A DNA stretch of 64,000 bases, from NCBI GenBank assembly GCA_963847445.1, contig CAWJZV010000002.1:96001-160000 (forward strand), given 5' to 3'. This document shows, piece after piece, positions 3,069 to 37,423 of the stretch. Made by a program: the position numbers and the translations under genes. Below the pieces are notes generated by a model. That model searched no databases. It was not told the origin of the DNA and saw only the letters and a program-made list of their open reading frames with translations. The stretch is from an uncultured delta proteobacterium (GTDB taxonomy: Bacteria > Desulfobacterota > Binatia > UBA9968). The stretch's first letter is position 1. Each line of letters begins with the position of its first letter.

Positions 3069-3185
3069 ATCAACCGAGCATTTCGCGATCGGGGTATGAA
3101 CTCCGCTCGCGACCAAATGGGATGTTCAACCCCCTTTGGAAACCCCAGCAATTTTGTGCCGCAGCAAGCTGCGGGGAAGATTAGA
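3069..3185. mobile_element. 117-bp palindromic MITE-like element, copy 1
   Basis: Near-identical to 17044..17161 and 24330..24446; starts ATCAACC, ends AGA followed by TTCAA. Confidence 0.85.
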
Positions 3186-3250
3186 TTCAAAAGAATCCGT
3201 TTGTGCTCGAGAGCCGCCTTTGTTAGCGTACGGGCGCTTCTCAACCGGTT

Positions 3251-4775
3251 ATGCTCGCCAAGGTCAACAGCGCCGCTCTTTATGGTATCGATGCACTCCG
3301 CGTCGAAGTCGAGATCGATCTCGCTTCCGGCTTGCCGCAACTGGCAACCGTCGGCTTGCCCGAAGGCGCGGTCAAAGAAAGCAAAGACCGCATCCGCGCC
3401 GCGGTGAAAAATTGCGGCTACACCTTTCCCGCCAAGCGCATCACCATCAACCTCGCGCCCGCCGACATCAAAAAAGAAGGCTCGGCCTACGACCTGCCGA
3501 TGGCCATCGGCATTCTCGCCGCCGAGGGCACTTTCGAGAAAACTCTCCTCGACGACTATTTTCTCATCGGCGAGCTTTCCCTCGACGGCTCGGTCAAACC
3601 GGTGCGCGGCGCGCTGTCGATCGCCATGGCCGCCAAGAAAGAAAAAGTCCGCGGCCTGATACTCGCCCGAGCAAAACGCCTCGGAAGCCGCTGTGGTAAG
3701 CGAAGTCGAAGTGCTGGGCGTGCGCGATCTGCCGCAGGTCGTGGAATTTTTGAACGGCACCCGAACCATCACCCCCACCAGCGCCAACCTCGACGATCTG
3801 TTCAGCCAGCACTCGCAATACAACGCCGACTTCAACGACGTCAAAGGCCAGCAGCATGTCAAACGCGCCCTCGAAGTGGCCGCCGCCGGCGGCCACAACG
3901 TCATCCTCGTCGGCCCGCCCGGCTCGGGCAAAACCATGCTGGCCAAACGGCTGCCGACCATTCTCCCCGATCTGACCTTGGCCGAAGCCCTGGAGACCAC
4001 CAAGATCCACAGCGTCATGGGCACGCTCGGCGGCCAAGCGATCATCGCCACCCGGCCGTTCCGCTCGCCGCACCACACGATCTCCGACGCCGGTCTCGTC
4101 GGCGGCGGCACGGTGCCGAAGCCGGGAGAAGTCTCGCTCGCGCACAACGGCGTCTTGTTCCTCGACGAGCTGCCGGAGTTTCGCCGCAATGTTCTTAGAA
4201 GTCATGCGCCAGCCTTTGGAAGACGGCAACATCACCGTCTCCCGCGCCATGGGCTCGATCAACTACCCGGCGAGCTTCATGCTGGTCGCCGCGATGAACC
4301 CCTGCGTCTGCGGATTTTTTACCGATCCCCAGAAGGAATGCACCTGCACGCCGCTGCAGATCCAACGCTACCGCTCGAAAGTCTCCGGCCCGCTCTTGGA
4401 CCGCATCGACATCCAAGTCGAAGTCCCCGGCCTGCGCTATCAAGAGCTCGCCAGCAAAGATGCCGGCGAACGTCGAACGTCATTCGCCAGCGCGTCAACG
4501 ACGCGCGCAAGATACAACTGCAACGCTTCGAGAAAACCAAGCTCCACGCCAACGCCCAGATGGGCGCCAAAGAGATCAAGCGCTACTGCGCGGTGAAAGA
4601 AGATGCCGAGAAGCTGCTGGAGACCGCGATCAACAAACTCGGCTTGAGCGCGCGCGCCTACAGTCGAGTCTTAAAAGTCGGACGAACCATTGCCGACCTC
4701 GCCGGCGCGGAAAGTATCGAATCGTCGCACATCGCCGAGGCGATTCAGTATCGGAGTTTGGATCGGAGCATGTAA
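3251..4775 (+). CDS. comM: YifB/ComM Mg-chelatase-like AAA+ ATPase, about three frameshifts (probable errors)
   Basis: ORF pieces 3251, 3693 and 4189 give [54 protein letters not shown]. Confidence 0.92.
4715..4775 (+). repeat. Left direct repeat (attL-like), the yifB/comM 3' end
   Basis: 60/61 nt identical to 10017..10077. Confidence 0.9.
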
Positions 4776-5224
4776 AGATCACCCTCGACACCTGTTTATC
4801 CTTGGCGCCGCACCCACTTTCAGTTCGCTCCTCGTCGGGAACGACTCTGCAACCAAAAAATCGCAACATGATCCGCGCGACCTTATACCCGGCCAGCCTG
4901 TGGTGATGTCGTCGAACCAATGGTGGATCGATCCGACGCGGACAAGTCGCGCCAAGAGATTGCATCAGGGGGAGGCCTAACCAAGTTGTTTTCCTTAGTG
5001 TAGACCGGCGTCTTCTCCGACCCTTCCGGCACGAACGGCTGAGACAGCGCCGCGCAGGGACAGACTTTGCGCAGCTCACGACTCTCCGGCTCTCGGAATT
5101 CGCGTGAGAGACAATCTGCCGAAAAGTGCTGAGGCTGCGCAGCGTTTAGTTTTGAGCATTTCAAAGCCGCGCAACCGTACTCGTATTATTGCCATTTTTG
5201 TGGTTACAGTTGCTTCAATCAATT

Positions 5225-6610
5225 CTAATTTCTCTTAGTTTGTTGTAATGCCTGTGTTATGTCTCGAATCGAGGAGAGTTTTTGGATTGCCTGTACAGAT
5301 TCGATGATTGTGCATTGTTGAACATCAGTGAGTAGTGTACCTACGGAATCTCTGAACTTCGTGACTGTTTGATCCCAGCCTTTCAAATCGCTGGGGACCA
5401 GAAGTGGTTCATCGAGTCGCGAGCCGTTTCTGAGTACCACGATTAGCGAAGGTGCATCGGCGATATGCCGACAACGATCGATTAACCCGACGATTGCCGG
5501 CTCTTGCAAACGTCGGTCGCTGAAGTCGTTAGGTCGGAGACGTCTATAAACAAGAGCGTTAGCAAGGCAAAACGGCATACTGAAGCGTCCTTCAAAACCT
5601 CGTTTAGGGTTCTGCCGAACCAGTGGGTATGGCTTCAAGTCAGCTTCGATTAGTTCAACATCGGCCGCACTCACGGCATGCTTCTCGACGAGTCTGAGCA
5701 TCGCCTCGACGGATGCATGGCTAGCGGTGCATGACGCGAACGGTTTAATTTTAATATCGCGCTCCAGTTCAAACTTGTCGCCAAGATGTTCTCCGAGGCC
5801 CATCAACACTTCTTCAGGAATAGGTCCGAGCGCTTCGAGAAGACCATATCGTCCTTCTAGAGCAGTCTCGTCTGACGTGAATCCTTCTGCTGCGAGAAGC
5901 GCGCAAGTAATTCCAGTCGCAGCGGCATGGCCGACACGAAACGGCTTGGCCATCGTTCCGCCGTCTCTGGTGAGTGCGCCGCACGATCCCGCGGCTAAGC
6001 CGATCGCTGCTGAAGTCTGGTCCACGTCCAGACCCAATACCTTACTTGCGGCACATGTCGAAGCTATCGGCCCCAAGATGCCATTCGAATGCCAACCTTT
6101 CGCGCCCGGACCAATGCCGCTCGAGCGCTTCGAGAATAGCCCGTCGAGCGCCGCGCGAACTTCTCGGCCGACAACAAAAGCCTCTAGTGCTTTAGCGCCG
6201 GATGAATCGAATTCCTCGGCCGCAGCGATCGAGACCGCCAGAGTATAAGTCGAGGCGTGATTTCTGTCATCATAGTCCAGGGCGTGCGCCAGCGTTCCGT
6301 TCAACAGTACGGCATCGCGCATATTCGAACGAAGCGGAGTACCCCAGATTGTACAAGAACCGGGTGCGGCATTCTTGCCGGCGAAACGCACTAGCTTCTC
6401 ACCGATCTCCTGCGACGCAGCTAGTACCGCCACCCCGAGACAATCGAGAATCGCTATCTTGGCATTATCCACTGCTTTTTGCGGGACTTTCTGCAAAGTC
6501 AGGCCAGCTGAGAACTTGGCCAACTTAGTGGACAAGCCGCTACGTAAGTCCATACTTTGTTGATCCATCTGTGAATTGCCCCTCGAACTCCAGTCGAATC
6601 CTTCGCTCAT
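5225..6610 (-). CDS. MmgE/PrpD-family protein
   Basis: NGTLAHALDYDD, GWH, K.F..GHAA..G, IKPFASC. Confidence 0.9.
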   Translation of the reverse strand: MSEGFDWSSRGNSQMDQQSMDLRSGLSTKLAKFSAGLTLQKVPQKAVDNAKIAILDCLGVAVLAASQEIGEKLVRFAGKNAAPGSCTIWGTPLRSNMRDAVLLNGTLAHALDYDDRNHASTYTLAVSIAAAEEFDSSGAKALEAFVVGREVRAALDGLFSKRSSGIGPGAKGWHSNGILGPIASTCAASKVLGLDVDQTSAAIGLAAGSCGALTRDGGTMAKPFRVGHAAATGITCALLAAEGFTSDETALEGRYGLLEALGPIPEEVLMGLGEHLGDKFELERDIKIKPFASCTASHASVEAMLRLVEKHAVSAADVELIEADLKPYPLVRQNPKRGFEGRFSMPFCLANALVYRRLRPNDFSDRRLQEPAIVGLIDRCRHIADAPSLIVVLRNGSRLDEPLLVPSDLKGWDQTVTKFRDSVGTLLTDVQQCTIIESVQAIQKLSSIRDITQALQQTKRN

Positions 6611-6623
6611 GAACAGCGCTGGA

Positions 6624-7700
6624 TCAGCTCATGCCTAGAAGTTTTCTTAAGCGCATCTTCGCCTCTTCCGGTACATCCAAGATTTGCTTGACCGTTTGTT
6701 GAACCTTATCGCCGGGCAGCGGCTCGTCGTCCGGGAACCCCGCTTTCTTGGAATCGGCGATATATTCGGCATCGTGAACGGTGTCCCAAAAAGCCTTGCG
6801 CAAAAGTTTGACGATATCATCGGGAAGTCCGGGAGGACCCAGCATCGGGTAAGCGTTCTCATAAGTGAAGCTGATAGTCTCAGCCACGCTGCGCCACGAT
6901 TTGTCCGGTGCAAGCTCGATCAACGTAGAGACATCGGGAAGGTCGCGGATCCGCTTCTCGGCGATCTGAACGATCACGGCCGCAAAAGGTTTGCTGCTGC
7001 CGAATTGTTTAAACCAGGTAGAATGTCTCGCTCTCGCAGAACTCCAGATAAGACCGCACCTCATATCGGCTTCGCCGCGTTCAATGGCGAGGTCGATGGC
7101 CGACCCGCCCGCATAGCCGGACACAACCTGCAGATTTAGGCCAGTGAACTGTTTCACGAGTAAGGCAACCACCGCACCGATGCTGGAGCCACCGGACTCC
7201 GCGTTGCGCAGCAGCGTGCCTGCGGAGCGCTTGATCGCTTCTTGGAGCGTACCGCCGCCTCGATCGATGCGCACGGCACAAACCGCGTCTCCCGTTGTTA
7301 GATTACCAATCCAATGAAACCGATCGGCTTTGTATTTAACGTTTGGATCTCCAATGGCCTCCTGGATCTCCGTTCCCCTAAGAATCTGTGCGATCGTCAG
7401 ACCGTCCGGTTTAACGAGATTATACAAATGGTTTCTCGCTCGAAGACCACCCGCACCGGGCATATTTTCAACGACCACAGTGGGGCTTCCCGGCAGATAT
7501 TTCGGCGCATGCCTAGCAAAAATGCGCGTCTTCAAGTCATTACCGGCGCCCGGTCCGGATCCAACGAGAATCTGCAGCGTTTTGCCTTTATAGAAACCTT
7601 CCTGCTGCGCCGAGGCTGAATGGCCAAAAATAAACACACCGACGACTGCTATCGCGAGGATGTATCCAGACAATCTCATAATAACTCCGGAGATTCGCAC
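6624..7700 (-). CDS. TctC/Bug-family tripartite tricarboxylate transporter substrate-binding protein
   Basis: Signal peptide, FYKGKT..I.VG..PG, VVENMPGAGG, KPDGLT, LAIERGE. Confidence 0.88.
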   Translation of the reverse strand: MRISGVIMRLSGYILAIAVVGVFIFGHSASAQQEGFYKGKTLQILVGSGPGAGNDLKTRIFARHAPKYLPGSPTVVVENMPGAGGLRARNHLYNLVKPDGLTIAQILRGTEIQEAIGDPNVKYKADRFHWIGNLTTGDAVCAVRIDRGGGTLQEAIKRSAGTLLRNAESGGSSIGAVVALLVKQFTGLNLQVVSGYAGGSAIDLAIERGEADMRCGLIWSSARARHSTWFKQFGSSKPFAAVIVQIAEKRIRDLPDVSTLIELAPDKSWRSVAETISFTYENAYPMLGPPGLPDDIVKLLRKAFWDTVHDAEYIADSKKAGFPDDEPLPGDKVQQTVKQILDVPEEAKMRLRKLLGMS

Positions 7701-8846
7701 TCATTCAACGCCGTAAAACTTTGCAGCGTTCTTCCAGGTTAAGTTTCGCCTTATCTCATCGGACACACCCTGGAACTGAGCCTTAATGATATCTTTGGAG
7801 TGCGGCCAAGTCGCGCCGCCGTGCGGGTAGTCGCTCGCCCACATCACGTTATCAACTAGATTGAGGGCTTGTGAACCGAGAACACCGACGCGATCGTCCT
7901 GAAATGTAATGAAAACCTGCCGTCTGATACACTCGGTCGGTAGCGCTTCGATGGTCGGTGATTCGGGCGCCTCTGAACGCGCTCGGGCGACGGACCCATC
8001 CATTTTGGCAAAAAATGGGTACAACCAGGACAATTCGTACTCGGCAAAAACGAACCGAAGCTTCGGAAATCGATTGAGTACGCCACCAAACACAAGGTCC
8101 GTGAGCAGGGCCAGAGGCTCCAGGATTGCGCGCCTGACTGCATTGCGGCCCTGCTGTAACTGAGTGATAACTTTCATACGAGCGGCCATTCGATCTCTGC
8201 CCTGCAATATATTCACGTGAAAATGGATGGGATAATCTAAATCTTGGGCGACTGCCCACAACCGATCGAATTCCGGATCAGCGTAACTCATGCCATCCGG
8301 AAGGCCTGACGGTAGCACGACACCCTTATGCCCGAGCTTCACGCAACGTTTCATTTCGTCAATCGACCATGCGAGATCGAGAGCAGACAAGAGACCAAGA
8401 CCGAGGAGCCGATCCGGCGCCGCCTCGCAGTAGTCGCATAACCAATCGTTGTACGATCTGAGCCCGGCTTGCTGGAGCGGAACCTCTTCGCCTTTCAAGC
8501 TATAAAAATTGCGCGCCATGCTCGGATAAAGAACCTCCATTTTGACTCCATCGAGATCCATATCGCTCAATCGCGCCAACGGATCCCAGGGCCCGCGCCA
8601 GTTCTCCCACTTAAAATTCTCAATTACTTTGCGAACCCCGCCGCCCTCTTTCTCAACTCCTGCCGTAAACGTCATACCCACGGGATCAGGCTCATGGCCG
8701 TCGAACACCATGTATAGACCTTTACGGCCGGGCGGATCTTGAACGAAATGAGGACCGTGAGCGCGCAACTGTTTAGGGATACGCTCCCATGCTGCGGGTG
8801 GTTCGTTAACGTGTGAATCAGCCGAGAAATTTGTCGCCTCGTCCAT
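7701..8846 (-). CDS. Amidohydrolase_2-family metallo-hydrolase/decarboxylase
   Basis: SADSHVNEP, DMDLDGV..EVLYPS, YNDWL, MWASDYPH; likely start ATG 8846. Confidence 0.88.
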   Translation of the reverse strand: MDEATNFSADSHVNEPPAAWERIPKQLRAHGPHFVQDPPGRKGLYMVFDGHEPDPVGMTFTAGVEKEGGGVRKVIENFKWENWRGPWDPLARLSDMDLDGVKMEVLYPSMARNFYSLKGEEVPLQQAGLRSYNDWLCDYCEAAPDRLLGLGLLSALDLAWSIDEMKRCVKLGHKGVVLPSGLPDGMSYADPEFDRLWAVAQDLDYPIHFHVNILQGRDRMAARMKVITQLQQGRNAVRRAILEPLALLTDLVFGGVLNRFPKLRFVFAEYELSWLYPFFAKMDGSVARARSEAPESPTIEALPTECIRRQVFITFQDDRVGVLGSQALNLVDNVMWASDYPHGGATWPHSKDIIKAQFQGVSDEIRRNLTWKNAAKFYGVE

Positions 8847-8913
8847 GATATGCCTCCTAGTATTCAGCTGCGATATTTTGCTGGACGCTAGATCAGAACC
8901 CTTATCAAGTATT

Positions 8914-8959
8914 TGCAAATATTCTTTCAAATCGGTATCAAAATGAAATAATTCTGTCA
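8914..8959. promoter_or_regulatory. Two candidate RpiR operators in the divergent promoter
   Basis: TGCAAATATTCTTTCA (8914-8929) and TGAAATAATTCTGTCA (8944-8959), 30 bp apart. Confidence 0.45.
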
Positions 8960-9009
8960 ATTGAGAAAACAGGGACGACCCAAACGACGAATCGAAAGAC
9001 ACTATTATC

Positions 9010-9867
9010 GTGGACCTAATCAACCGAGTTCAGCATCGCTATAACACGCTAAGTAAAATCCAACGGAAGATTGCCAACTATCTTGCGAGTGATGGAATTG
9101 CGGCATCGTTTGATTCCATCACGGAGCTGGCTCCGAAAATCGGCGTAAGTGAAGCGTCGTTGGTCAGGTTCGCCAAGCAGCTTGGATACAAAGGCTATCC
9201 GAGTTTTCGCAAGGAACTTCAAGCCGAATTCAGAAAAACAACCGGAAACGTCTCGCGCTTTCGCCACGCGGTCACGAGCGTTTCGGACGAACGCTTTCCG
9301 GAGTCGCTATTTCAAAGCGACATTGAACTGATCGAGGAGACGCGATCGAAGTTGACTGAAGCTGCGTTTACCGAAGCTGTTGACATGGTCGGCCGCGCGA
9401 ATAAAATTTTTATCATCGGGTTTCGCGCGGCTTTTTCACTCGCTTATTTTCTGTATTTTCGTTTTGTCCGGCTTCGAATGGACGTGCGGCTTATCACCGT
9501 AACCGGCGGTACATCTCTAGTTGAGCAGCTCGCGTTACTCGAAAAAGGCGATCTAGTCATTGCCCTCGGGTTTGACGAAATCCCACGGGAAACAAGGGTG
9601 ACCATCGATTTTGCGGTGAAGCATCGAATTCCGGTGCTAGGGGTTAGTCACATTCCGACATCGGAAATCGCGCGAACCTCGACGCTATGCCTAGTGGGTT
9701 GTCGCCGGCCCCACCGAACTCAGTCCCTCGCGCCTTCGATGTCACTGCTGAATGTTTTAGCTATAGCCGTCGCAGCGCGCAACAAGCCCAAGGCGGTTCG
9801 CGCGCTTCGCCGTTTGGACGCGATCGAGCAGCGTTACCTCAAAGCGAAACACGCGCGAGGCTTATAA
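9010..9867 (+). CDS. RpiR/MurR-family transcriptional regulator
   Basis: HTH (VSEASLVRFAKQLGYKGY) plus SIS domain. Confidence 0.92.
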   Translation: MDLINRVQHRYNTLSKIQRKIANYLASDGIAASFDSITELAPKIGVSEASLVRFAKQLGYKGYPSFRKELQAEFRKTTGNVSRFRHAVTSVSDERFPESLFQSDIELIEETRSKLTEAAFTEAVDMVGRANKIFIIGFRAAFSLAYFLYFRFVRLRMDVRLITVTGGTSLVEQLALLEKGDLVIALGFDEIPRETRVTIDFAVKHRIPVLGVSHIPTSEIARTSTLCLVGCRRPHRTQSLAPSMSLLNVLAIAVAARNKPKAVRALRRLDAIEQRYLKAKHARGL

Positions 9868-10016
9868 AGCGAAAAGGTTACTTTCTTTCCGGTCTGCGGG
9901 CGGTCATGCGGGTCGCAATGATCGCTCTGCGCGCCTGGCCCCGGGGGAAAAAACGGGGTGAGCGTCCCTGTTTGAATGAACATGCATCTCGACGACGGAT
10001 CTAGCGGGGCGGAGCA

Positions 10017-10077
10017 TATCGAATCGTCGCACATCGCCGAGGCGATCCAGTATCGGAGTTTGGATCGGAGCATGTAA
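10017..10077 (+). repeat. Right direct repeat (attR-like), duplicated yifB/comM 3' end
   Basis: Encodes [19 protein letters not shown]-stop; weaker homology extends about 20 nt upstream. Confidence 0.9.
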
Positions 10078-10773
10078 TCGGCCCTCGTGCGGTCCCCTGG
10101 CTCGCTAACTATCTGACGCGGAGTCGGCAGCGACCACAAATTTAAACACATCATCAATAGCATTCGCTTCTTTTCGAGTCGTGCGCCGTCAAGCGCAAAC
10201 GATCAGCGTTTACGACTCCGCCATCGCCACAGCGCGAGGCGTATTCCCACGCACAGTTTAATAACGGCTTGACACCCAGTGTTAGGGCCAGTCTAGCGCG
10301 GAACGATGCCGACGTAGCTGTCCGCGGTCGCGCTATCCTATTTTTTTTCGCGCTGATTCGCCGTAGGTATTCAAGCAGACTGAGAATTGAGTGGCCCTAC
10401 AGTTGCTGTAAGAACCTCTCGCGCATGGGACATAGGGGACCGTAGAAATTGTCCAGCCTGCAATTCCGCATTTGTGGCTTAGGAGGGATTAAGGTTTTCT
10501 TGATTGTCCTACGATTACTCACGAGGACAACTTCACGCTCGGATGAGAGGGCGCTGAAGCTGATACAGAGCACAAACCAGAATTGCCCTTTTGTATCGGC
10601 CACCATTGCGGTTCGGGTCATTATGAGGTCACCGACTCCCCAGTCCCTAGCAACGGGTAGGTGCTATTACATTTCGATATTAATAAATCGGTGAAGATCC
10701 CACTGTGCATATGACGGCTGGTAACTGAAGTCGCGTTTCAATCGGATAGAATCCAATCCAATGTTCGGCCCAT

Positions 10774-16990: not shown

Positions 16991-17043
16991 ATGTCTCTTT
17001 AAACCCCGCAAACGGGCAAATGTGAAAAATCTCCGTCCAAATA

Positions 17044-17161
17044 ATCAACCGGGCATTTCGCGATCGGGGTATGAACCCCGCTCGCGACCAAAGGGGATGT
17101 TCAACCCCCTTTGGAAACCCCAGCAATTTTGTGCCCGCAGCAAGCTGCGGGGAATATTGGA
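17044..17161. mobile_element. Palindromic MITE-like element, copy 2 (118 bp)
   Basis: Near-identical to copy 1, followed by TTGAA; about 50 bp upstream of the ECF start. Confidence 0.85.
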
Positions 17162-17182
17162 TTGAAAGTTGAACCGTCCGCA

Positions 17183-24242: not shown

Positions 24243-24671
24243 TTAGTGATGTTTTTCGGATGCGATCTTTTCGGGAATGACAAATGTGACCATGCCTTTG
24301 TCGAGTGGCTGATGGTTCGCGTCAACCAAATCAACCGGCCATTTCGCGATCGGGGTATGAACCCAGCTCGCGACCGAAGGGATGTTCAACCCCCTTTGGA
24401 AACCCCAGCAATTTTGTGCCCGCAGCAAGCTGCGGAGAATATCAGATTCAATCAGCACTTTGTGCGGACCGTGGAGAAGACCCTGCAGGATGATTGGCAG
24501 ACCACTCGCATCCGCCCACACCCATGAGGCATCGTCGACTCTCACATGAATGTGTCCGGCGCGCGGCGAGACCGTCAGAGCATTAGCGCCGAACACCGGC
24601 ACAATGTGCAGGTTCTCACTACAATATTGGATACCCACCACGCCGCGGGAGTCAAGCGGTTCGGCCAGCAC
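24243..24671 (-). pseudogene. DUF6130-like protein, 5'-truncated, carrying an in-frame 117-bp element
   Basis: VSPRAGHIHVRVDD..W.WADASG.P....L..GPHKVLIE[39-aa insert]LVDANH; family name from memory. Confidence 0.65.
24330..24446. mobile_element. 117-bp palindromic MITE-like element, copy 3 (intragenic, in frame)
   Basis: Removing it restores ATT GAA TTG GTT (IELV) on the minus strand. Confidence 0.88.
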
Positions 24672-29111: not shown

Positions 29112-29127
29112 TGCAAAATCAATGCCT
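29112..29127 (-). promoter_or_regulatory. Sigma-54 promoter
   Basis: AGGCATTGATTTTGCA (GG-N10-GC) with an AT-rich tract upstream. Confidence 0.6.
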
Positions 29128-29655
29128 TATTACTTGTCGAGTTAAAGCGAATGATTTTAGTTATTTAAAATATGCCGTGTGAACGGACTAGATTTTAATG
29201 TGTCAAAAACGGGATTTGTCGCAGTAATGAGACGGTAGAAGATTCTAGATGACCGACAGGAATTAGCGCCATGAAACTGGGAGATAATCGTCGACTGTGT
29301 GAAAGTCTTTTTGCCAGCGCAGGCTAGTTGTGCCGGCTTGCAACTGTTACCTTACCTTGGTGGATTTCCGAACACTCCTGGTAATTCTCTTCGGCATAAT
29401 TCTGCCGGCTCTTTTCATAGTTTTTTACTTGCTCGGCCCGTAGAGCAAGATACGCCGACTTTCGGATTGTTGAAGCGGGTCATTGCTAACTAGATCACGG
29501 CTCATTTTTTCTGGGTGACTTTGTCTTGTACCGTGCGGTATCGCCCATCGAAAAAGATCGTCGGAACACAAGCCCGTAAGTTTTTGGTACACGCAATAAA
29601 TGGTGTACGACATCTGGACCTAGAAGAAATATTTCCGCCGCGTGGCGGAAGCCGT

Positions 29656-30780
29656 CTACTCGGGGATTGTGACCCGAGGCAGACGTACCACGAATCTCGT
29701 TCCGTCTTCCGCGGTGGAGGTTACGCTGATTTTCCCCGTATGCGCTTCGACAATCTCACGAGCAACGAACAGCCCAAGACCGAAATGGCTAGTGTATTTT
29801 TCTTGCTTGGCGGCACTAGAGAAAGGATCGAAAATTGTCTGAAGTTCGGATTGAGGTATCGGCACGCCATTGTTGTGTACTGTGAGGACAATTTCCTTCG
29901 ATTCCCCGTGTGCATCAATGCTCACGGGGGATGTCGGGTCACCATGCTGTATTGCGTTGGAAATAAGATTTGCAAGCATCTGGCTTATGCGAATGTCATC
30001 CAACGCGCCGTAGAGACCCGCGCCGCAATCTGAACGGATGGTACGCTCTGGATAGGCCGCGACAAATTCCGCGACTGTGTGCTGGCAAACTGGGGTAAAG
30101 TCTATTAACTCCCGTTTGACAACCACAGGCAGTCCAAAACGGGCCCGCGTAAAGTCAAGCAAGTTATCAATCAACTTGCTCATACGCATGCCACTATGAA
30201 CCATACTAGTGGCGAGATCCTCGACAACACCCTTATCGAAACCGGCTCTTTGAAGTATCTGCGCCGACGACACGATCGCGTTGAGTGGATTTCGCAGATC
30301 GTGCGCCATGACCGCAAGGGCTAAATCCCGGGAAGCATCTATTTCCTGCATGAATCGAGCAGTCGATTCGCTAAGCGCCTGATCAATCCCTTCGTTGAAC
30401 CTGATTAATTGGTCAATGTTAGAAGTGTCCCCCAAGTCCGGTGAACTGTCGATCCATAGCCGAATCACAGTCGCCCGAAGAGCCCGAAATTCCGACAATA
30501 GTTGGGCGTGGTTGAAGCCCAAGCCGAACCGATCCGCAGCATGGTATTCCGCAGCGCTTTCCTCCTGTGGACGTCGGCCGCGACCTGTGGATTTTTCTGC
30601 CTGCTCCGCTGCAGTTTGCGCAGTCTCCATATCCTTCGCAATCGCCATCAGGATTTTTTGCGCTGAATTCCTTAGTACGATTTTGGTGAATTTTGCGTCA
30701 GCTAAGACGGTGGCGGCAAAGGATTCCCATTGCGTGAGAATGTGCTCGAGGTTTAGGAGAATGAATTCTGACAAACGCAT
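29656..30780 (-). CDS. Cytoplasmic sensor histidine kinase with RsbRD-like N-terminus
   Basis: HDLRNPL, NLISNAIQHG, FDPF, GLGLFVA; N-terminal MRLSEFI..N.E.I...WE.FA. Confidence 0.92.
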   Translation of the reverse strand: MRLSEFILLNLEHILTQWESFAATVLADAKFTKIVLRNSAQKILMAIAKDMETAQTAAEQAEKSTGRGRRPQEESAAEYHAADRFGLGFNHAQLLSEFRALRATVIRLWIDSSPDLGDTSNIDQLIRFNEGIDQALSESTARFMQEIDASRDLALAVMAHDLRNPLNAIVSSAQILQRAGFDKGVVEDLATSMVHSGMRMSKLIDNLLDFTRARFGLPVVVKRELIDFTPVCQHTVAEFVAAYPERTIRSDCGAGLYGALDDIRISQMLANLISNAIQHGDPTSPVSIDAHGESKEIVLTVHNNGVPIPQSELQTIFDPFSSAAKQEKYTSHFGLGLFVAREIVEAHTGKISVTSTAEDGTRFVVRLPRVTIPE

Positions 30781-30856
30781 AACTTTTTGTAGCAGAGGTG
30801 ATGAATGGAATCTTAAAGAAAAATTAGAGGCGAGCGGTTGGTATGGCGCTGTTCAG

Positions 30857-31207
30857 TTACAGCAGCCGCTGAATATTCGATTTTAAATTATCGAATATAA
30901 CCGGCTTGCCCATGATTAAGGATTTCGGCATTTTGGATAGGTCAAGAGCGTCGTCAGGATAAGAGGTTAGAACAATAAAAGGGGTGTCTGCGGCGATAGA
31001 ACGTAGTCGCGTAATGACCGCAATGCCATCAACGCGGGGCAGACGGATATCTGAAATCACCAAATCAAATTGACAATTATTTAGGAGATCGAGAGCTTGA
31101 GCGCCATCTTTCGCTTCCTCGACCTCGTATCCCTCTCGACGCAAAAACATGCTGATAAGTTTTCGGCTGATTGGCTCATCCTCTGCGAAGAGAATTCGTT
31201 GTTGCAT
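30857..31207 (-). CDS. Single-domain response regulator
   Basis: AEDE, DLVISDIRLP..DG, T, KP. Confidence 0.9.
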   Translation of the reverse strand: MQQRILFAEDEPISRKLISMFLRREGYEVEEAKDGAQALDLLNNCQFDLVISDIRLPRVDGIAVITRLRSIAADTPFIVLTSYPDDALDLSKMPKSLIMGKPVIFDNLKSNIQRLL

Positions 31208-31391
31208 ACGCTACTTTTTCCTTTCGAAGCGACGGCTTTCAGCGCTCAAATTCATGCCATAGCTCTCATATTCGTCCACTGATTTTGCAAAACCAGACGC
31301 GGAGTTGCATGTCAATTTTGAACCGAACTCCGCCCAGCCACAATGCCCTCCTGGAAAATAATAGTAATGATGTCGTGCAAACTCGAGACGG

Positions 31392-31778
31392 TTAAGTAGG
31401 CATGCGCACGCCGCCGGTGACCCCTCGATTGCGATTGATAATTTCTAATGCCAGCGCGGCCTGATCGTCGGCTTCGACCAACAGCAGCATCTGCCCGACT
31501 CCGAGTTCCGGAATGCTGGGAATTTCTCCCGCAGGTATCGTGTGCACCTTAGTTTCGGTGATAAAGTCCTGCTGCGCCACGCTGTTTTGCATGGCGACGG
31601 CAATCCGATCGTCGGCAAAGCCGGCGCCTTTTAACTCTTTGACCGCCTTCCTGGCTTGCTCCAACTCACCGAACAACCCTGTAACGCGGGTATCGCCCAC
31701 CGTCGCGCCCTCAGCCATGCTCGTGGCTATCTCAGGACTAGTTGTTTTCGGATAATTGTTAAATTCTCGTAATTGCAT
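31392..31778 (-). CDS. Hypothetical protein (general-stress-protein-like)
   Basis: VTGLF....A..AV.EL..AGF..D.I.V pattern. Confidence 0.6.
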   Translation of the reverse strand: MQLREFNNYPKTTSPEIATSMAEGATVGDTRVTGLFGELEQARKAVKELKGAGFADDRIAVAMQNSVAQQDFITETKVHTIPAGEIPSIPELGVGQMLLLVEADDQAALALEIINRNRGVTGGVRMPT

Positions 31779-31851
31779 GCCTCACCTCGCAAATGAATTA
31801 ATCGACATATGAGTTACTCGCACCTTCCGGCATTCGATTTACCCTCGATAA

Positions 31852-31867
31852 AGCAACGAACGTACCA
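31852..31867 (-). promoter_or_regulatory. Sigma-54 promoter
   Basis: TGGTACGTTCGTTGCT (GG-N10-GC) upstream of 31778. Confidence 0.6.
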
Positions 31868-32078
31868 ACCTATAGGTCCTGGCAGAATGGTGAAGTGTCT
31901 TGGATGTGACCCAAAAACCGATTAAATTTCCCGGAGATGAAACAAAGCACCGCCCTCGCGGACCGCTGAGATAACGAGGGTGAGATGCCGATAAAGCTCA
32001 GCGCCCATCAGGCAAATTGAATAAGAGTCGGGAGTTTCTGTGGATAGGGAATAACTGGCAAGTGAGAAAACGGCGACT

Positions 32079-32333
32079 CTAAACTTCGGGTGCGACACTC
32101 ATCGCGTCTTCGATGAAAGGCACCGCCTCGGGATAGAGCCGCCGCGCAGTTTCAAGGAGCAGCTTCGCCTCATCCATGTCACAGAGGATCTCGACCGTCG
32201 GCTGCTCGTCGCTGCTTTGATGCCTGGCGACTATATTGTTTTTGAGGATCGTATATTCGGGAGAGGTAATTTCGCACGCGGCTACGAACAGGTCATAGTG
32301 CTCAGGCGGTAGTCGGATCAGGAGGGTTGTCAC
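32079..32333 (-). CDS. Hypothetical protein
   Basis: 84-aa ORF; no family recognised. Confidence 0.55.
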   Translation of the reverse strand: MTTLLIRLPPEHYDLFVAACEITSPEYTILKNNIVARHQSSDEQPTVEILCDMDEAKLLLETARRLYPEAVPFIEDAMSVAPEV

Positions 32334-32496
32334 TTGTTAAAGCTAGGCAGTTTTCAGTGGAAGTACAAGTGGCCGTCGTGATCGACGGCGGCACCGGATG
32401 AACAAGCGAAGCGATTTAACCTTGAACCGCGCCCTTGGAACCGTGAACGTGCCCCGCAAACCGCGCTTAGCCCGATAGCAAGCACGGTTCGGCAAT

Positions 32497-32934
32497 TCAA
32501 CGCGGGCCGATGCGCAGGCTCTTGGTCGCCAGATAGATCTCGCGCAGGAACCACAGCAAGCCGAGAAAGAAACACAACATCGCGGCAATGAATAGCAGGG
32601 CCACCGGGATTGACGCATCGAAGCGCAGGAAGGCGCTCAGGAAGAGAACCGCGATCACGGTGCACACGAGCAGCGCCGTCATCGTGCATAGCGTGATGGC
32701 GCGTCCGTTCAGTTTTGCCCGCCGTGACAGCACGGCGAGATCCGCGCGCAGGGTTGCGAGAGATTCCGCGGAAGCCCCCTCCAGCCTATCCTCCAAGACG
32801 CGAGCGCGATCGATGACTCGACCGAGCCGGTTGGTCATGACCGCGAGGATGGCGCCGATGCCCGAGAGAAGAAATACCGGCGCGACCGCCAGTTGGACCG
32901 CATGGGCGACCGCGACGTCCGAAAATTCAAGCAC
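32497..32934 (-). CDS. DUF2721-family membrane protein
   Basis: VQLAVAPVFLLSGIGA.L.V.TNRLGR.IDRAR, FLREI. Confidence 0.88.
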   Translation of the reverse strand: MLEFSDVAVAHAVQLAVAPVFLLSGIGAILAVMTNRLGRVIDRARVLEDRLEGASAESLATLRADLAVLSRRAKLNGRAITLCTMTALLVCTVIAVLFLSAFLRFDASIPVALLFIAAMLCFFLGLLWFLREIYLATKSLRIGPR

Positions 32935-32960
32935 GAAACCTCCAGCAAACGTAAGCCCGC

Positions 32961-33210
32961 CTAACCGACGAGGCAGAATAGGAACGCCAGGTCGCTGGCG
33001 ACGGTGCGTGTCCAGTGAAGATAACCCCAGCGTGTGAGCGCAGCGATTTCCGACGCGGCATCACGATTCCGCAGCAAATCGTCGTTGACTGGTTAATCAC
33101 GATGAGCGTGAACGGAATCACGCTGCCGATGACAACGGCAACGGCGAGCCATAGCGCGCCTGCCCCGCTGAGCCACGCCCAAATCGCGCTTGTGCACCCG
33201 ACCGCTCTTT
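32961..33210 (-). pseudogene. DUF1772 (anthrone oxygenase-like) remnant
   Basis: VIPFTLIVI, then after a frameshift VNDDLL...RWGYLHWTRT. Confidence 0.5.
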
Positions 33211-33336
33211 AGTCGCTATACCCGCGAACCACTGCAACACCGGTTTGCACAACGGTCCGCAGTGCCATGAGCAGTTTTTGGGTCGTGCCTGAGAATTCAC
33301 TTATTCATATTAGCCGGGCGTCTCACGGATGAAGTC

Positions 33337-33624
33337 TTAATTCCTACGTGAAAGTAACGATCTTAAAGTCTGGTAAACGTCACGTCGGTGCCCCACGTGG
33401 TAAATCTCTAGGCAAGATTCTTCTTCATTGACCCGGTAGATAATGCGATAACGCCTCACTCGATAGGAACGGTAACCGTCGAGTTCGCCGGTTAGTTCTG
33501 TGCCCATCTCAGGCTTAGCTAGCAATGCATCTATGGTCGATCGAACAAGCCGTTTGATATCAGGCGGCAACTTGGAAATGAGGCGTGAGCATTCGGGGGT
33601 ATAGCGAGAGGAGAATTTGCTCAA
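33337..33624 (-). CDS. RelE/ParE-family toxin
   Basis: LTGELDGYRSYRVRRYRIIY..VGHRRDVY; TTG start overlapping the antitoxin stop. Confidence 0.88.
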   Translation of the reverse strand: MSKFSSRYTPECSRLISKLPPDIKRLVRSTIDALLAKPEMGTELTGELDGYRSYRVRRYRIIYRVNEEESCLEIYHVGHRRDVYQTLRSLLSRRN

Positions 33625-33890
33625 CGGCGAAATACCTCGTCCGGCCGCAACCACTTGCCCTTACGCGCTTGACGTATGGAGGTTCTCAGGGACTTCGCGG
33701 TATCCTCGTCGCTGAGAATATCGAGTGTTTCAAGCAGGCCGGCATATTTCTCCATACTTAGGATCACCGCGGCGGGAACACCGTTCTTGGTAACGGCTAC
33801 CGACTCATCGACGCTTTCAACTTGACGGATCAGCTCCAACAAGTCGTTTTTTGCTTTGGTGATCGGTACGTATCTGGATATCTCGTTCAT
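33621..33890 (-). CDS. Phd/YefM-family antitoxin
   Basis: ITKAKNDLLELI..V, VTKNGVPAAVILS, ETLDILS. Confidence 0.9.
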   Translation of the reverse strand: MNEISRYVPITKAKNDLLELIRQVESVDESVAVTKNGVPAAVILSMEKYAGLLETLDILSDEDTAKSLRTSIRQARKGKWLRPDEVFRR

Positions 33891-33905
33891 AATGGCCTCA
33901 ATAAC

Positions 33906-33937
33906 GGCTAGTATAATAGCCACTGGGCAAGTGTCAA
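33906..33937 (-). promoter_or_regulatory. TA promoter with overlapping palindromic operator
   Basis: TTGACA-N16-TATACT; IR GGCTA-GTATAA-TAGCC over the -10. Confidence 0.6.
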
Positions 33938-34060
33938 GATTTGCGGTAGAGCGAGGCGTTTCGTCCGCTCTTTCGTGCCGATTCGCAAACGGCGCGCGAA
34001 TTTCATCAACAGCGCGCAGATGAAAGAGCGCGCGGTTGACGCTTGATTGATTATCACTAC

Positions 34061-35077
34061 TTACCGTCCGGTCGACACCGTACCCTGCCGGGCTTTGAAG
34101 CGGTGCTTGTCGATTCTCAGGCTCTTGATTTTCGACTCCAGCGTTTGCCGTGGGATTCCCAGTTTGGCCGCGGCGCCGGTGGAGCCGGCGACCTGGCCGT
34201 GACACTCGGCCAATACCGTTTCGATCATTTCTTTTTCGCGCTCGACCAGAGTGGCGACAAACGGCACCGCCGCCGCCGATCGTTGGCCATCTCGTTTCAA
34301 CCAGGACTCGTCGATGGCAAAGGTTTCGCTGTCGCAGAGCACGACCGCCCGCTCGATGACATTTTGCAGTTCGCGAATGTTGCCGGGCCAATCGTAGGCT
34401 TGAAACAACTCCGAGGTCTGCTTGCGGATATTGCGGATTTTTTTCCCGGCCTTCTTGGCGTAGCGCTCGATGAAATATTCGACGAGCAGCGGGATATCGT
34501 CCACCCGTTCGCGCAAGGAGGGCATCTGGATGGGAAAAACGTTGAGCCGATAAAACAGATCCTGGCGGAAGGTCCCGGCGGCCACGGCAGCCTCCAGGTC
34601 GCGATTGGTAGCACCGAGCACGCGCACATTTACAGAAATCGTTTGGCCGCTGCCGACACGTTCCAATTCCCCTTCCTGGAGCACGCGCAGCAGGGCGATC
34701 TGCGTCTCGGCCGGCAGTTCGCCGATCTCGTCTAAAAAAATCGTCCCGCCGTCGGCCAGCTCAAACCGCCCCAAACGCCGTTGCAGCGCGCCGGTGAATG
34801 CGCCCTTCTCGTGGCCGAACAGTTCGGATGCGATCAGCGATTGCGGGATCGCCGCGCAGTTGACGCGAATAAAGGCGCGCGACGAACGTTTCGAGCGCTT
34901 ATGAATGGCGCGGGCGATCAGCTCCTTGCCGGTGCCGGTTTCGCCGAGAATCAGCACCGTCGAATCCACCGGCGCGACCTTGGCGACTTGCGCCAATACT
35001 TTGCGCAGCGCTGCGGAGGAACCGACGATCTCCTCGCCATTTTTATTTTCCGTAGGTGTGCGTGAGCACATGAACAA
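34061..35077 (-). CDS. Sigma-54 enhancer-binding protein lacking a sensory domain (probably 5'-truncated)
   Basis: GETGTGKE, GAFTGA, FLDEIG, WPGNIREL and HTH; homology starts abruptly at EEIVGS. Confidence 0.85.
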   Translation of the reverse strand: MFMCSRTPTENKNGEEIVGSSAALRKVLAQVAKVAPVDSTVLILGETGTGKELIARAIHKRSKRSSRAFIRVNCAAIPQSLIASELFGHEKGAFTGALQRRLGRFELADGGTIFLDEIGELPAETQIALLRVLQEGELERVGSGQTISVNVRVLGATNRDLEAAVAAGTFRQDLFYRLNVFPIQMPSLRERVDDIPLLVEYFIERYAKKAGKKIRNIRKQTSELFQAYDWPGNIRELQNVIERAVVLCDSETFAIDESWLKRDGQRSAAAVPFVATLVEREKEMIETVLAECHGQVAGSTGAAAKLGIPRQTLESKIKSLRIDKHRFKARQGTVSTGR

Positions 35078-35658
35078 TTGGTGGTGTCTTACTTCCCGGA
35101 CGCAATATCAACGGCGTGAGACACTTCACTAGACTCTGAAACCGATTCGAACTTTCGCCGGGAATTGGCCGATTTAATTCGCCTTCCGATCTCTCTCCCG
35201 CTCAGGTTCTTGGAAGCTGTGCCGCTGCCGCTGAGATCGGCATCCTTCGTATGCGTTGGTGTCGGCTCCATCGACAGCTTTACGCTGTCGTCGGCAACGC
35301 CCAGCGCCCGAGGCAGTTTTTACCCGCGCTAGTTTGGTGGCTCGCGACTTGCCAAAAGAGCTGCCATTTTATTTGCGCTGTCTTCATGGCCGCTCCGTTA
35401 TCGGTAAGATTACTGCCATCGTTCCTGCGCCAGCTCTCTGGCGTATCTGCCGTAGCCATGGCGGAGATAGCGCAGCCGGCGCTGAAACCAGGTGCCCCGG
35501 GGCCATTGCCAATTCTGCGCGGGCAGTATTTCGCCGTCATAGCTGGCGTTATTCACCCTGCTTTGTCGAAAGATTATTTCCCACGAATTCATAGTCTATA
35601 CCCTCTCTTCTCTTACCCCTCTTGATGCCTTCCGCGTCCGAGCAATTCCCGGCGCAGG

Positions 35659-36081
35659 TTAACTGGCCAGCCGTTTTTCATCCCGCGCGCCATTGGGAGA
35701 CGGCTTTTGCCGATTCTTTTCTTTCCAGCGCAATAGCCCGCGGCGCACATACTCGGGATTAAAGCCAAGCGCTTCACAGACATTGTCAAAGGAAAACATC
35801 CAATCGCCGCCCGGCGTTGTGATCCACTGCTCGGCTTCCTCGAACAACCGCCGGTGCTTGCTGTTGTGCGCAAACCGATTGTCCTGGAAGTTCAGGATCG
35901 CATCTTCTAGAAGCGCCAGCATGAGCCGCTTCTCCGGCTCAAGCCGGGTTTTTCTCCGCAGGGTGTCAAAGTATTGGGCCGACAGCAGCGTGTCCGGCTG
36001 AAACAGCGAGGCGAGTTTTTCGTCGCCCCTGAAAGCCGTGGCACTCTCCGTGTTCCCTGAATTTGCCAGCGTCGGTTCCAT
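35659..36081 (-). CDS. Conserved-looking hypothetical protein
   Basis: PEKRLMLALLEDAI...EAEQWI...FSFDNVCEALG; in operon after thioredoxin. Confidence 0.75.
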   Translation of the reverse strand: MEPTLANSGNTESATAFRGDEKLASLFQPDTLLSAQYFDTLRRKTRLEPEKRLMLALLEDAILNFQDNRFAHNSKHRRLFEEAEQWITTPGGDWMFSFDNVCEALGFNPEYVRRGLLRWKEKNRQKPSPNGARDEKRLAS

Positions 36082-36093
36082 AGTCACCTCCTG

Positions 36094-36432
36094 CTAATTG
36101 TTCGCGCTAACCTGAGCATCGATGGCCTGTGTGATCAGTTCCTTGCGCGCGACTCCGACCATGCGCTGTTTTTCTTCGCCGTCGCGAAACAGTATCAGCG
36201 TCGGTATCGCCTGCACCCGATAGCGTTCGACAAGTTGCGGATTATCATCGACGTTGAGTTTCATGAACCGCGCCGTGCCGGCGTACTGTTGGGCGAGCGC
36301 ATCGACGATCGGCGCGAGAGCGCGGCACGGTCCGCACCATTGCGCCCAAAAATCCACCAGGACCGGTGTTTTTGAATTCAACACCGTCTCGGCAAAATTG
36401 CCGTCGTTTACTTCTTGAACAAATTCGCTCAT
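36094..36432 (-). CDS. trxA: Thioredoxin
   Basis: VLVDFWAQWCGPC, IPTL. Confidence 0.95.
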   Translation of the reverse strand: MSEFVQEVNDGNFAETVLNSKTPVLVDFWAQWCGPCRALAPIVDALAQQYAGTARFMKLNVDDNPQLVERYRVQAIPTLILFRDGEEKQRMVGVARKELITQAIDAQVSANN

Positions 36433-36704
36433 GGTTTTTCTCCTCTGATGATCTCTTCGACAATCGCTTTGGTCATGCACCCTTCAGCGGTCAGCCCGGC
36501 TCCCCGTCGCCGCATCTCCGCCAGGAGTTGTCTTCCGGCGGCGTCGATGAACGTCACCTGCTTCAACACCACGCCGATCTGGCGCCCGTCCCGTTCCGCT
36601 CGCTGCCAACTGTCGCGCAATTCCTCGACCCAGGGACCGGCAAGCCGGCCCGCGAGTTCAAGGGTGGCGCGTTTGCCTTCGATATCTACGGTGATTTTAA
36701 GCAT
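36429..36704 (-). CDS. Small STAS-like protein
   Basis: MLKITV...LAGRLAGPWVEEL...VTFIDAAG. Confidence 0.8.
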   Translation of the reverse strand: MLKITVDIEGKRATLELAGRLAGPWVEELRDSWQRAERDGRQIGVVLKQVTFIDAAGRQLLAEMRRRGAGLTAEGCMTKAIVEEIIRGEKP

Positions 36705-36721
36705 AAGCCGGACAGCGCGCT

Positions 36722-37135
36722 TTATATCGCCTCGCCGTTCACCACCGCGACCAACACGCCTGCAAGCTCATCTCCTCCCTCAACCAGCGCCCGGTCGACA
36801 ACCAACCTCTCGATGCCGAATCGATCGAACCAGCTAACCACGACCAGCGCGCCGCCGCTGTCGAACACTTCGAGATAATCCACCGGTCTCGGCGTCGTCG
36901 GATCGTCATAGATCGCGATTGCGCCGACGGTCTGGCCGTGCGCCGTTAGCGGCGAGAGCGAAACCATAGTAAATGCGACCTGCGGCAATCCCGCCGCCGG
37001 CGCCGGGTAGCGTGGCTGGCCATTGCTGTCGGCAGCTTGCGCCCCAGCGACGGCGACCCAAGCGAACAGAATTAATCCGCCGATAGCCAGCGCGGCCCTG
37101 ACGGCGCGCGAATAATTGGTAGGTTTTAATGACAT
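36722..37135 (-). CDS. Exported hypothetical protein
   Basis: Signal peptide; YDDP.T.RPVDYLE, WFDRFGIER. Confidence 0.7.
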   Translation of the reverse strand: MSLKPTNYSRAVRAALAIGGLILFAWVAVAGAQAADSNGQPRYPAPAAGLPQVAFTMVSLSPLTAHGQTVGAIAIYDDPTTPRPVDYLEVFDSGGALVVVSWFDRFGIERLVVDRALVEGGDELAGVLVAVVNGEAI

Positions 37136-37160
37136 CGTCGATCCTCGCTTTACTCGACTC

Positions 37161-37322
37161 TCAGTTCCAGGTCACTTGTCGATGAATGACAATTTCCTCA
37201 CCGAGCTCGTCCGTCTCTAGGATCGGCTCGCACCAACACAAATGTGAATCCAAGTGAATGAGTCCGGCGGGCATCGCCACCGGCGCTGCTGCGGGATAAA
37301 TCCATCTTTTATCAATTTCCAT
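37161..37322 (-). CDS. 53-aa small protein with H..CWCxP..H motif (below ORF-track cutoff)
   Basis: AGGAG RBS; MEIDKRWIYPAAAPVAMPAGLIHLDSHLCWCEPILETDELGEEIVIHRQVTWN*. Confidence 0.6.
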   Translation of the reverse strand: MEIDKRWIYPAAAPVAMPAGLIHLDSHLCWCEPILETDELGEEIVIHRQVTWN

Positions 37323-37362
37323 CACATCGTCTCCTTGCCAGGCGCTTCGACTTGCCGGTCAA

Positions 37363-37423
37363 ATAAACCGGCATTTCGCGTACGGGGTATTACCCCCGCA
37401 GCAAGCTACGGGGAATGTTCAGA
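37363..37423. mobile_element. 61-bp short variant of the MITE-like element, copy 4
   Basis: Same ends (ATAAACCGGCATTTCGCG...GCAGCAAGCTACGGGGAATGTTCAGA then TTTAA); middle ~56 bp absent. Confidence 0.75.

Follow-up and report, generated by a model that had tools for sequence, protein, structure and literature searches.

Short three-hairpin mobile elements that insert beside TTNAA without target duplication in uncultured Syntrophobacteraceae-like bacteria

Introduction

Palindrome-associated transposable elements (PATEs), as defined in the description of those of Haloquadratum walsbyi (PMC3119063), have no terminal inverted repeats, carry palindromes near their termini, cause no target duplication and are not long enough to encode a transposase. 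All four features are found in a dispersed three-hairpin element that occurs in four copies in the 64,000-nt stretch of DNA analyzed here (the window; C2:96001-160000 of the source genome, G000). The host is an uncultured Syntrophobacteraceae-like deltaproteobacterium, whose assembly comprises 7.19 Mb in 48 contigs and is 91.8% complete, with an estimated contamination of 6.9%. We conclude that the element is a non-autonomous mobile element and that it represents a new family of the PATE kind.

Several described systems invite comparison. As in our element, the conserved terminal oligonucleotide of the H. walsbyi PATEs is a targeting sequence that lies outside the element. However, those PATEs are archaeal and are described as having ends related to resident IS605/IS1341-type transposons (PMC3119063), whereas here no related transposon was found, in a genus without a match to TnpB (PF01385), and the element adds a third, central and nearly invariant hairpin. 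The PATE-like elements of Geobacillus stearothermophilus, which are mobilized in trans by one TnpA (PMC10055086), likewise occur as dozens of gene-less copies with conserved ends and with transposon-adjacent and transposon-encoded motifs, to which TTNAA and TTGAT of our element correspond. Geobacillus, as portrayed there, has a tnpA with matching ends, TnpB/IscB relatives and often omega RNAs; none of these was found here (IscB was not searched for).

In IS200/IS605 elements, guide tetranucleotides located 5′ of each hairpin pair with the cleavage sites. For IS608, PMC3201880 reports that the target lies 5′ of the left end, outside the element, that insertion proceeds without gain or loss of DNA, that the right palindrome is followed, 10 nt further 3′ of its foot, by the right cleavage site, and that pairing between guide and cleavage site is partly non-canonical. 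The orientation of IS200/IS605 insertions is reported to be biased towards the lagging-strand template (PMC5027513). Our element is like IS608 and ISDra2, as so described, in its one-strand insertion 3′ of a 4-5-nt motif with no DNA gained or lost, its subterminal hairpins and its bias towards the lagging-strand template. The right end lies 9 nt beyond the hairpin foot, compared with 10 nt in IS608, and its terminal TTGAT resembles the target, TTNAA. In contrast, the left linker is ~10 nt rather than 19 nt, tnpA and tnpB are lacking, the end hairpins are unlike one another, and the bias is 2:1.

Repetitive extragenic palindromic (REP) sequences and the REPINs built from them are, like our element, intergenic, high-copy hairpin repeats in a genome that encodes a REP-associated tyrosine transposase (RAYT). 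Their unit, according to PMC6006769, is either one GTAG palindrome of 20-40 nt or two of these in inverted orientation, whereas our element consists of three different hairpins and has no GTAG. Nor does it flank the RAYT gene in the manner of a REPtron; this RAYT has REPs of its own.

[quoted passage not shown] Our element is like them in its size of ~120 nt, its many copies, its intergenic position and its occasional in-frame insertion, but both hallmarks were tested for and neither terminal inverted repeats nor a target-site duplication was found.

Results

Element-free sites and the target motif

Ten insertion sites of G000 were queried in five close relatives, and seven of them have an orthologous site that is free of the element: three are clean, three (copy 1 of the window, C14:260093, and C14:1618) are obscured by indels or by divergence, and one is without a recognizable pentamer. 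For the other three (copy 2 of the window, C45:127936, and C15:37926), there was no colinear match across the site in the five relatives. The clean site of copy 3 is exact in G045 (..CCAA/TTCAA/TGAGCAC..), as is that of C45:207475 in G004, where the left flank, a single TTCAA and the right flank follow one another. At C14:273135, the sites in G003 and G004 are of equal length, with TCAAA there and TTAAA in G000. The site orthologous to copy 1 in G003 is also element-free, with AATTATC repeats that blur the junction.

The reverse comparison, of 32 loci (27 distinct) around the copies of relatives, turned up five candidates for a site at which G000 lacks the element. A G003 copy (L090) has flanks that are 95.7% identical to G000, with ATCAA on both sides of the element and a single ATTAA in the empty site, and a G022 copy (L055) has TTTAA where the empty site has TTAAA, a difference at N alone. 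Two more candidates (L040 and L042) are too diverged to read. This presence or absence at orthologous sites, as well as bursts of near-identical copies, shows that the element is or was mobile, and the empty sites show that it lands directly beside a pre-existing TTNAA, without duplication. Four G003 copies (L083, L085, L088, and L091) are orthologous to copies of G000; as some insertions are shared with G003 and others are not, some predate the species split and others are younger.

The first-pass annotation of the window had noted TTNAA after each of the four copies, no consistent target duplication, and the prospect of empty sites in relatives, all of which stood up to the genome-wide comparison. 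In a flank logo built from 40 non-redundant G000 copies, the positions after ..TTAGA are T (39), T (40), N (C18 T13 A7 G2), A (39), and A (36), beyond which the sequence is random. A strict TTNAA follows 34/40 of these copies and 67/80 of the copies at metagenome loci. The N of this pentamer is near random in copies that are ~93% alike, while the ATCAA (subfamily A) or ATAAA (subfamily B) end is constant within its subfamily, and we therefore assign TTNAA to the flank and ATCAA to the element. On the ATCAA-side flank, G is rare at -2 and -3 in the 40 G000 copies, and the combined information at the insertion point amounts to about YMA^TTYAA. The flank motif in relative G068 is ATCAA-like (A28, T26, C20, A25, and A18 of 32).

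Two other interpretations of the junctions were set aside. A target duplication is contradicted by left and right pentamers that do not covary and by five element-free sites, each with a single, unrepeated pentamer (two others have no pentamer and several are unreadable); moreover, copies 1 and 2 have no flanking direct repeat in common. Under a mirror model, TTNAA would be the end of the element, and ATCAA, on the + strand, would be its target. As target and element end are alike, this model accounts for most junctions almost equally well. At the three clean sites, however, it leaves 1, 1, and 3 mismatches in the pentamer, as opposed to 0, 0, and 1 under the preferred model, and it fails to account for the variability of N.

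Arrays of GTTCAA-containing words (e.g. GGTTCAAAGGTTCAA..) followed by inverse TTGAAC words stand beside some insertion sites, namely the flank of the C45 copy (207475-207597) and L116, L117, and L183 in relatives; they are TTCAA-rich and form large imperfect palindromes. When C14:1936 is compared with L116/L117, and L096 with G000:C24:131263, the unit of difference seems to be the element plus the pentamer, 122 nt in all.

Copy number and distribution

The expectation of many copies genome-wide, drawn from four in the window, proved right. The census of G000 gave 50 matches by blastn and 52 by nhmmer with a hidden Markov model (HMM) of 123 model positions; 49 of the latter, on both strands, are near full length, that is, span at least 95/123 positions. 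Subfamily A has 28 copies with a mean pairwise identity of 92.8%, and subfamily B has 12 (87.7%), with 73.8% between the two. Copy lengths of 114-123 nt leave no room for a transposase gene.

The DNA search matched 16/41 genomes, G000 included (other genomes of the genus 12/24, family f2 3/5, family f3 0/11). A wider survey with a covariance model of the element, over 123 genomes of the order, located the family in 38 genomes and 12/27 genera (family f1 34/89, f2 3/5, f3 0/28), and several genomes carry one diverged relic. G068 has 79 matches, of which 31 full copies compared are 94.3% alike. Some tallies of relatives include the unpublished genome G005 (and, for REP_Tyr_transpos below, also G082, G085, and G093), but no claim depends solely on these. 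The public contigs that match the element belong to Syntrophobacter-like, "delta proteobacterium" and Thermodesulfobacteriota metagenome-assembled genomes (MAGs), and viral contigs gave 0 matches to the core pattern. We found no paper on such repeats in Syntrophobacter in a limited literature search, which leaves earlier publication possible.

Three metagenomes (soil, sediment, and biofilter) are very rich in copies, with a summed contig depth that rises from ~6 to 400-580 solely over the element. Metagenome contigs that contain other copies begin to match copy 2 at 17042-17045 and cease at 17163-17167. In these three metagenomes no contig joins across copy 2, and no empty allele was seen, which carries little weight because contigs break at repeats.

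Three side observations concern the census. The copies at C29:21693-21815 and C8:150092-150215 of G000 are the same copy with the same flanks, and contig C29 largely duplicates part of C8, which may reflect strain heterogeneity or an assembly duplicate, in agreement with the estimated contamination of 6.9%. At L056:838-881 (G002:C463) and L057:1710-1750 (G022:C692), hairpin 1 and the ATCAACC end alone make up solo fragments of 40-44 nt, and the flank that follows both of them reads TGCT on the inferred top strand; these could be truncations or the product of a one-ended event. Lastly, a second dispersed repeat of ~160 nt and 72-83% identity, seen at L055:1172-1334 (G022:C583), has more than 30 matches in G000, for example at C14:155138-154974 and C2:65159-64998.

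Hairpin structure and its conservation

The first-pass annotation had described three stems in each full copy, and an inverted-repeat scan lists them as TCGCGATCGGGGT/ACCCCGCTCGCGA, CCAAAGGGG/CCCCTTTGG, and CCCGCAGC/GCTGCGGG. Hairpin 1 begins 14 nt from one end, and hairpin 3 stops 10 nt from the other. As single-stranded DNA (ssDNA), copy 2 folds far better than its shuffles (z of -5.4 for the + strand and -5.8 for the - strand, with 0/200 shuffles as good), and folding z-scores overall range from -5.4 to -7.6. The termini of copies 1 and 2 show no complementarity, and all recurring inverted repeats are internal, in keeping with the earlier statement that terminal inverted repeats are lacking. 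The termini vary between subfamilies, with ..ATCAA at one end widely retained.

Structural conservation was assessed in an alignment of 82 distinct copies from G000, nine relatives of the genus, G033 (family f2) and public contigs. Over the three helices, 91.8% of helix cells are paired. Two-sided changes were counted in 86 cells, compared with 20.1 +/- 3.4 in shuffles (0/500 reach 86) and 9-20 in slid controls, and the covariation is located in hairpin 1 (pairs 19-45, 20-44, 21-42, and 22-41) and hairpin 3 (115-123 and 116-121). There is hardly any variation, over two bacterial families, in hairpin 2 and the GGAAACCCCA that follows it, and the hairpin 2 stem is longer in the G033, G068, and G103 types. 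Covariation of hairpins 1 and 3, together with the tolerated change in the stem length of hairpin 2, speaks for a single strand that folds rather than for a site bound as duplex. There is no wobble asymmetry by which to choose a functional strand (35 G-T vs 46 A-C mismatches). An integron attC site was set aside by inspection, given the three separate hairpins, the lack of an R''/R' core pair and the dispersed rather than arrayed copies.

Search for a mobilizing enzyme

No longer element that shares the ends was found in G000, where the whole-genome nhmmer search returned short elements alone. The genome has no intact IS200-type tnpA. It has four Y1_Tnp hits, two of them long proteins and two weak: one long protein, of 307 aa, matches REP_Tyr_transpos at 88.3 bits (cut-off 80) and has a DnaA-C-like tail, and the other, of 275 aa (64.8 bits), carries HTH_23. 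Judged by domain make-up alone, these long Y1 proteins with a helix-turn-helix (HTH) would correspond to TnpAY1 subclass 2.1. There are also two strong canonical RAYT matches, at C26:64332-64766 (195 bits) and C39:631-1071 (191 bits). The Y1_Tnp hits of G000 that were scanned are four, namely both long Y1 genes, the RAYT of C39 and a fragment on C1; none has a copy of the element within 1.5 kb, and the copies nearest to the C26 RAYT are tens of kb away. At C26:64150-65090, outside the window, repeated palindromes of the GTAG type (..CGTAGGATGGGTGGAGC.. and its inverse) stand on either side of the latter gene, and BLAST gives 8-17 matches to each of them elsewhere in the genome; this locus is a classical REPtron, unrelated to the hairpin element.

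G000 and five copy-rich relatives together have 30 Y1 hits, and the loci of 24 were scanned for nearby copies. Three IS200-type tnpA genes of G014 and one of G023 have no such ends. With respect to TnpB, PF07282 has no match in G000 and none above the curated cut-off in the five relatives (G007 has one sub-threshold match of 22 bits), and PF01385 matches 0/31 genomes of the genus; neither a companion TnpB nor an omega RNA was found in the scans of the genus, in which IscB was not searched for. REP_Tyr_transpos is present in 107/123 genomes of the order, including 24/28 of family f3, where the element is found in 0/28, and the Y1/RAYT genes, which are missing from the element-rich G068, G076, and G027, show no phyletic correlation with the element. 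Thus, the tnpA, tnpB or RAYT gene with the same ends that the first-pass annotation had envisaged was found neither in G000 nor in the relatives examined.

Eighty metagenome loci carry the 30-nt left-end word. By a simple motif test, 64 of them hold both other hairpin regions, and most of the remaining 16 are complete copies in which the hairpin 1 word varies, plus truncated, contig-edge and deletion forms. Three further candidates for an autonomous relative were rejected. Single-copy relics in relatives do not mark a master gene: in the 10 genomes scanned, the neighboring open reading frames (ORFs) have Pfam domains of housekeeping proteins, and none is a transposase. Pairs of G068 copies that lie 1.0-1.5 kb apart are not composite or autonomous units, since they flank ORFs that, as named by eye from sequence, are KdsA-like, flavoprotein and universal-stress-protein-like. 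The solo fragments of G002 and G022 are not the ends of a full-length insertion sequence (IS), as the adjoining genes are ordinary.

In one instance (L070:1037-1157; G023:C41), a copy is located at the 3′ end of a long RAYT-like Y1 ORF and appears to have truncated it, leaving 254 aa compared with ~300-320 aa in relatives.

Genomic context and orientation

With genes called by a rough in-house procedure (6513 genes, 75% coding), 47/49 copies of G000 are intergenic, and the gene contexts of the 49 are -- (17), ++ (10), +- (10), -+ (9), and contig ends (3). GC skew is steady along the contigs of this genome. With one duplicated locus dropped, the orientation used in the first-pass annotation lies on the C-rich strand in 33/48 copies (p=0.013); in other words, the inferred top strand is the G-rich strand, and hence the lagging-strand template, in 33/48. 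The bias is 14:7 where neighboring genes are not in tandem, and ~60% of genes are on the G-rich strand. When a further 22 copies (14:8), those of G003, G004, and G014, are counted as well, the figure becomes 47/70 (p=0.0056), though some of these are orthologous and not independent. The shared orientation of the window copies had been noted as one that would fit a replication-strand bias; a bias in the IS200/IS605 direction is indeed present, but there is no strict rule.

Copies in the window

The four copies are exact to the base as first reported (Table 1). In the first-pass annotation they were written on the + strand, where all four have the same orientation and begin with ATCAACC (three copies) or ATAAACC (one copy); the strand in Table 1 is that of the inferred active top strand.

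Table 1. Coordinates of the copies, their flank motifs and related features in the window
Feature	Position	Strand	Context or basis
Copy 1, subfamily A, 117 nt	3069..3185	-	between divergent guaB-like and ComM/YifB-like genes
Copy 1 flank motif TTCAA (TTGAA on inferred top strand)	3186..3190	.	sequence and flank logo
Copy 2, subfamily A, 118 nt	17044..17161	-	between ECF sigma-factor gene and pirin-like gene
Copy 2, hairpin 1	17058-17087
Copy 2, hairpin 2	17088-17114
Copy 2, hairpin 3	17134-17151
Copy 2 flank motif TTGAA	17162..17166	.	sequence, flank logo and metagenome contig boundaries
Copy 3, subfamily A, 117 nt (39 codons)	24330..24446	-	in-frame insertion in DUF6130-family ORF
Copy 3 flank motif TTCAA	24447..24451	.	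present unduplicated in G045 element-free allele
DUF6130-family ORF interrupted by copy 3	24243..24671	-	Pfam PF19625, E 1.3e-24
Copy 4, 61 nt, both termini kept, then TTTAA (37424-37428)	37363..37423	-	sequence and HMM

The PF19625 match in the ORF that contains copy 3 covers profile positions 52-124 and lies upstream of the insertion. The HMM matches copy 4 in two parts, at model positions 2-38 and at 90-123. This copy keeps both ends, but what lies between one CCCGCA word in the 3′ arm of hairpin 1 and another in the 5′ arm of hairpin 3 is missing, which makes it an internal-deletion derivative. Both genes near copy 1 are split, the guaB-like gene into two overlapping ORFs (1130-2221 and 2214-2594) and the ComM/YifB-like gene over two reading frames (3251-4198 and 3693-4775); indel errors in the assembly, or else pseudogenes, are the probable explanation.

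Discussion

The first-pass annotation had proposed a non-autonomous element moved in trans by a Y1 HUH transposase. That the element is mobile and non-autonomous is borne out above; the Y1 step in trans is what we infer from its geometry. On balance, we lean towards movement as ssDNA by the IS200/IS605 "peel-and-paste" route via a Y1 enzyme. Features that agree with this route include a 4-5-nt target located 5′ of the left end and outside the element, hairpins kept by compensatory changes, a right end 9 nt beyond its hairpin, and a weak bias towards the lagging-strand template. The top strand reads TTNAA (mostly TTRAA), followed by the left end, with a linker of ~10 nt and hairpin 3, and then by hairpin 2, hairpin 1, a 9-nt linker and the end TTGAT (TTTAT in subfamily B). 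A Y1 HUH enzyme acting in trans would nick this strand 3′ of TTNAA and 3′ of TTGAT, the excised single strand would be circularized, and the circle would be inserted into the lagging-strand template, 3′ of a further TTNAA that is exposed there.

A number of observations weigh against this route. Ends shared with an autonomous Y1 TnpA insertion sequence were not found in G000, at the 24 Y1 loci of the genus and 11 of family f2, at the relic loci of 10 relatives, or at the 80 metagenome loci. No Y1 gene with the ends of the element was encountered: one of the 24 scanned loci has a copy, and it truncates the gene, while nearby copies at 2/11 Y1 loci of family f2 are about the chance level. None of the 80 metagenome loci has a coding insert between the ends. 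G068, with its 79 copies, has no match to Y1_Tnp or REP_Tyr_transpos in an assembly that is 95% complete in 230 contigs, but multi-copy IS are often lost from MAG bins, which makes this weak evidence of absence. In sequence, the end hairpins differ from each other, and the IS608 model leaves unexplained why the central hairpin is the most conserved part. The strand bias is only 2:1. The other flank is also informative, with A at -1 in 31/40 copies of G000 and 42/52 in the metagenomes. Finally, two empty sites without a recognizable pentamer (C14:1936 vs G003/G004, and the G004 copy L096 vs G000) do not fit a simple target model, and several further empty sites are too diverged to read.

The element might also be the DNA partner of an enzyme other than a recognizable IS200-type TnpA, be it a long Y1+HTH protein (subclass 2.1, "TIRYT"-like) or an enzyme not yet linked to hairpin elements, with hairpin 2 as its recognition site. 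We regard this as a minor possibility; if true, it would be a new element-enzyme system and would explain the 79-copy burst without a detectable Y1 gene. A related explanation is a REP/RAYT-like system, in which the element is spread or maintained by resident domesticated Y1 proteins (canonical RAYTs and long Y1+HTH proteins) rather than by an IS200-type TnpA. The chemistry would be the same as in the peel-and-paste route (Y1 and ssDNA hairpins), G000 has no intact IS200-type tnpA but does have two strong RAYTs and two long Y1 proteins, and subclass 2.1 proteins are, in the account of PMC6006769, without a known REP partner. We nevertheless consider it unlikely, given that the C26 RAYT has its own GTAG-type repeats, no copy adjoins the scanned Y1_Tnp hits of G000, REP_Tyr_transpos occurs in element-free f3 and is missing from element-rich genomes, and the element is neither a single palindrome nor an inverted pair of one.

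Departing further from Y1 chemistry, the element might derive from another duplication-free transposon (IS110/IS1111 DEDD, IS91 Y2, or IS607 serine) that moves as double-stranded DNA or by rolling circle. The failure to find a Y1 partner, most strikingly in G068, and the presence of information on both sides of the insertion point, as in site-specific recombination, speak for such an origin. We doubt it, however, as no longer element with so much as one matching end was found in G000 (no search aimed at these transposase families was made), hairpin covariation and the longer central stem of some subfamilies point to a folded single strand rather than a duplex site, and the strand bias fits the targeting of ssDNA. 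Least probable, and in our opinion very unlikely, is a structured small RNA or regulatory module, whose function would explain the conservation and whose spread would be secondary. In its favor, the core (hairpin 2 and GGAAACCCCA) hardly varies between two families, unlike the termini, which are particular to each subfamily, nearly all copies are intergenic, and a 306-nt contig of RNA library X15 carries a full copy with other flanks; that contig, however, gives neither strand nor ends, and DNA carry-over is possible. Against an RNA function, copies occur in all four gene contexts and one lies inside a coding frame, G-T mismatches are not in excess over A-C on either strand, and presence or absence at orthologous sites with near-identical bursts is the behavior of mobile DNA. 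In addition, Rfam has 0 matches at gathering thresholds in the window (E<=10 gives mir-H7 alone, E 1.5), so that no identity with an Rfam family is seen.

The family described here provides well-delimited, duplication-free palindrome-associated elements in poorly studied, uncultured Syntrophobacteraceae-like bacteria of soil and sediment. Its copies break short-read assemblies at the element boundaries and, as copy 3 demonstrates, can sit in frame within genes. Insertions that are either shared or private mark the recent divergence of close species. Should the mobilizing enzyme not be an IS200-type TnpA, the element would offer a concrete substrate for testing orphan Y1 proteins.

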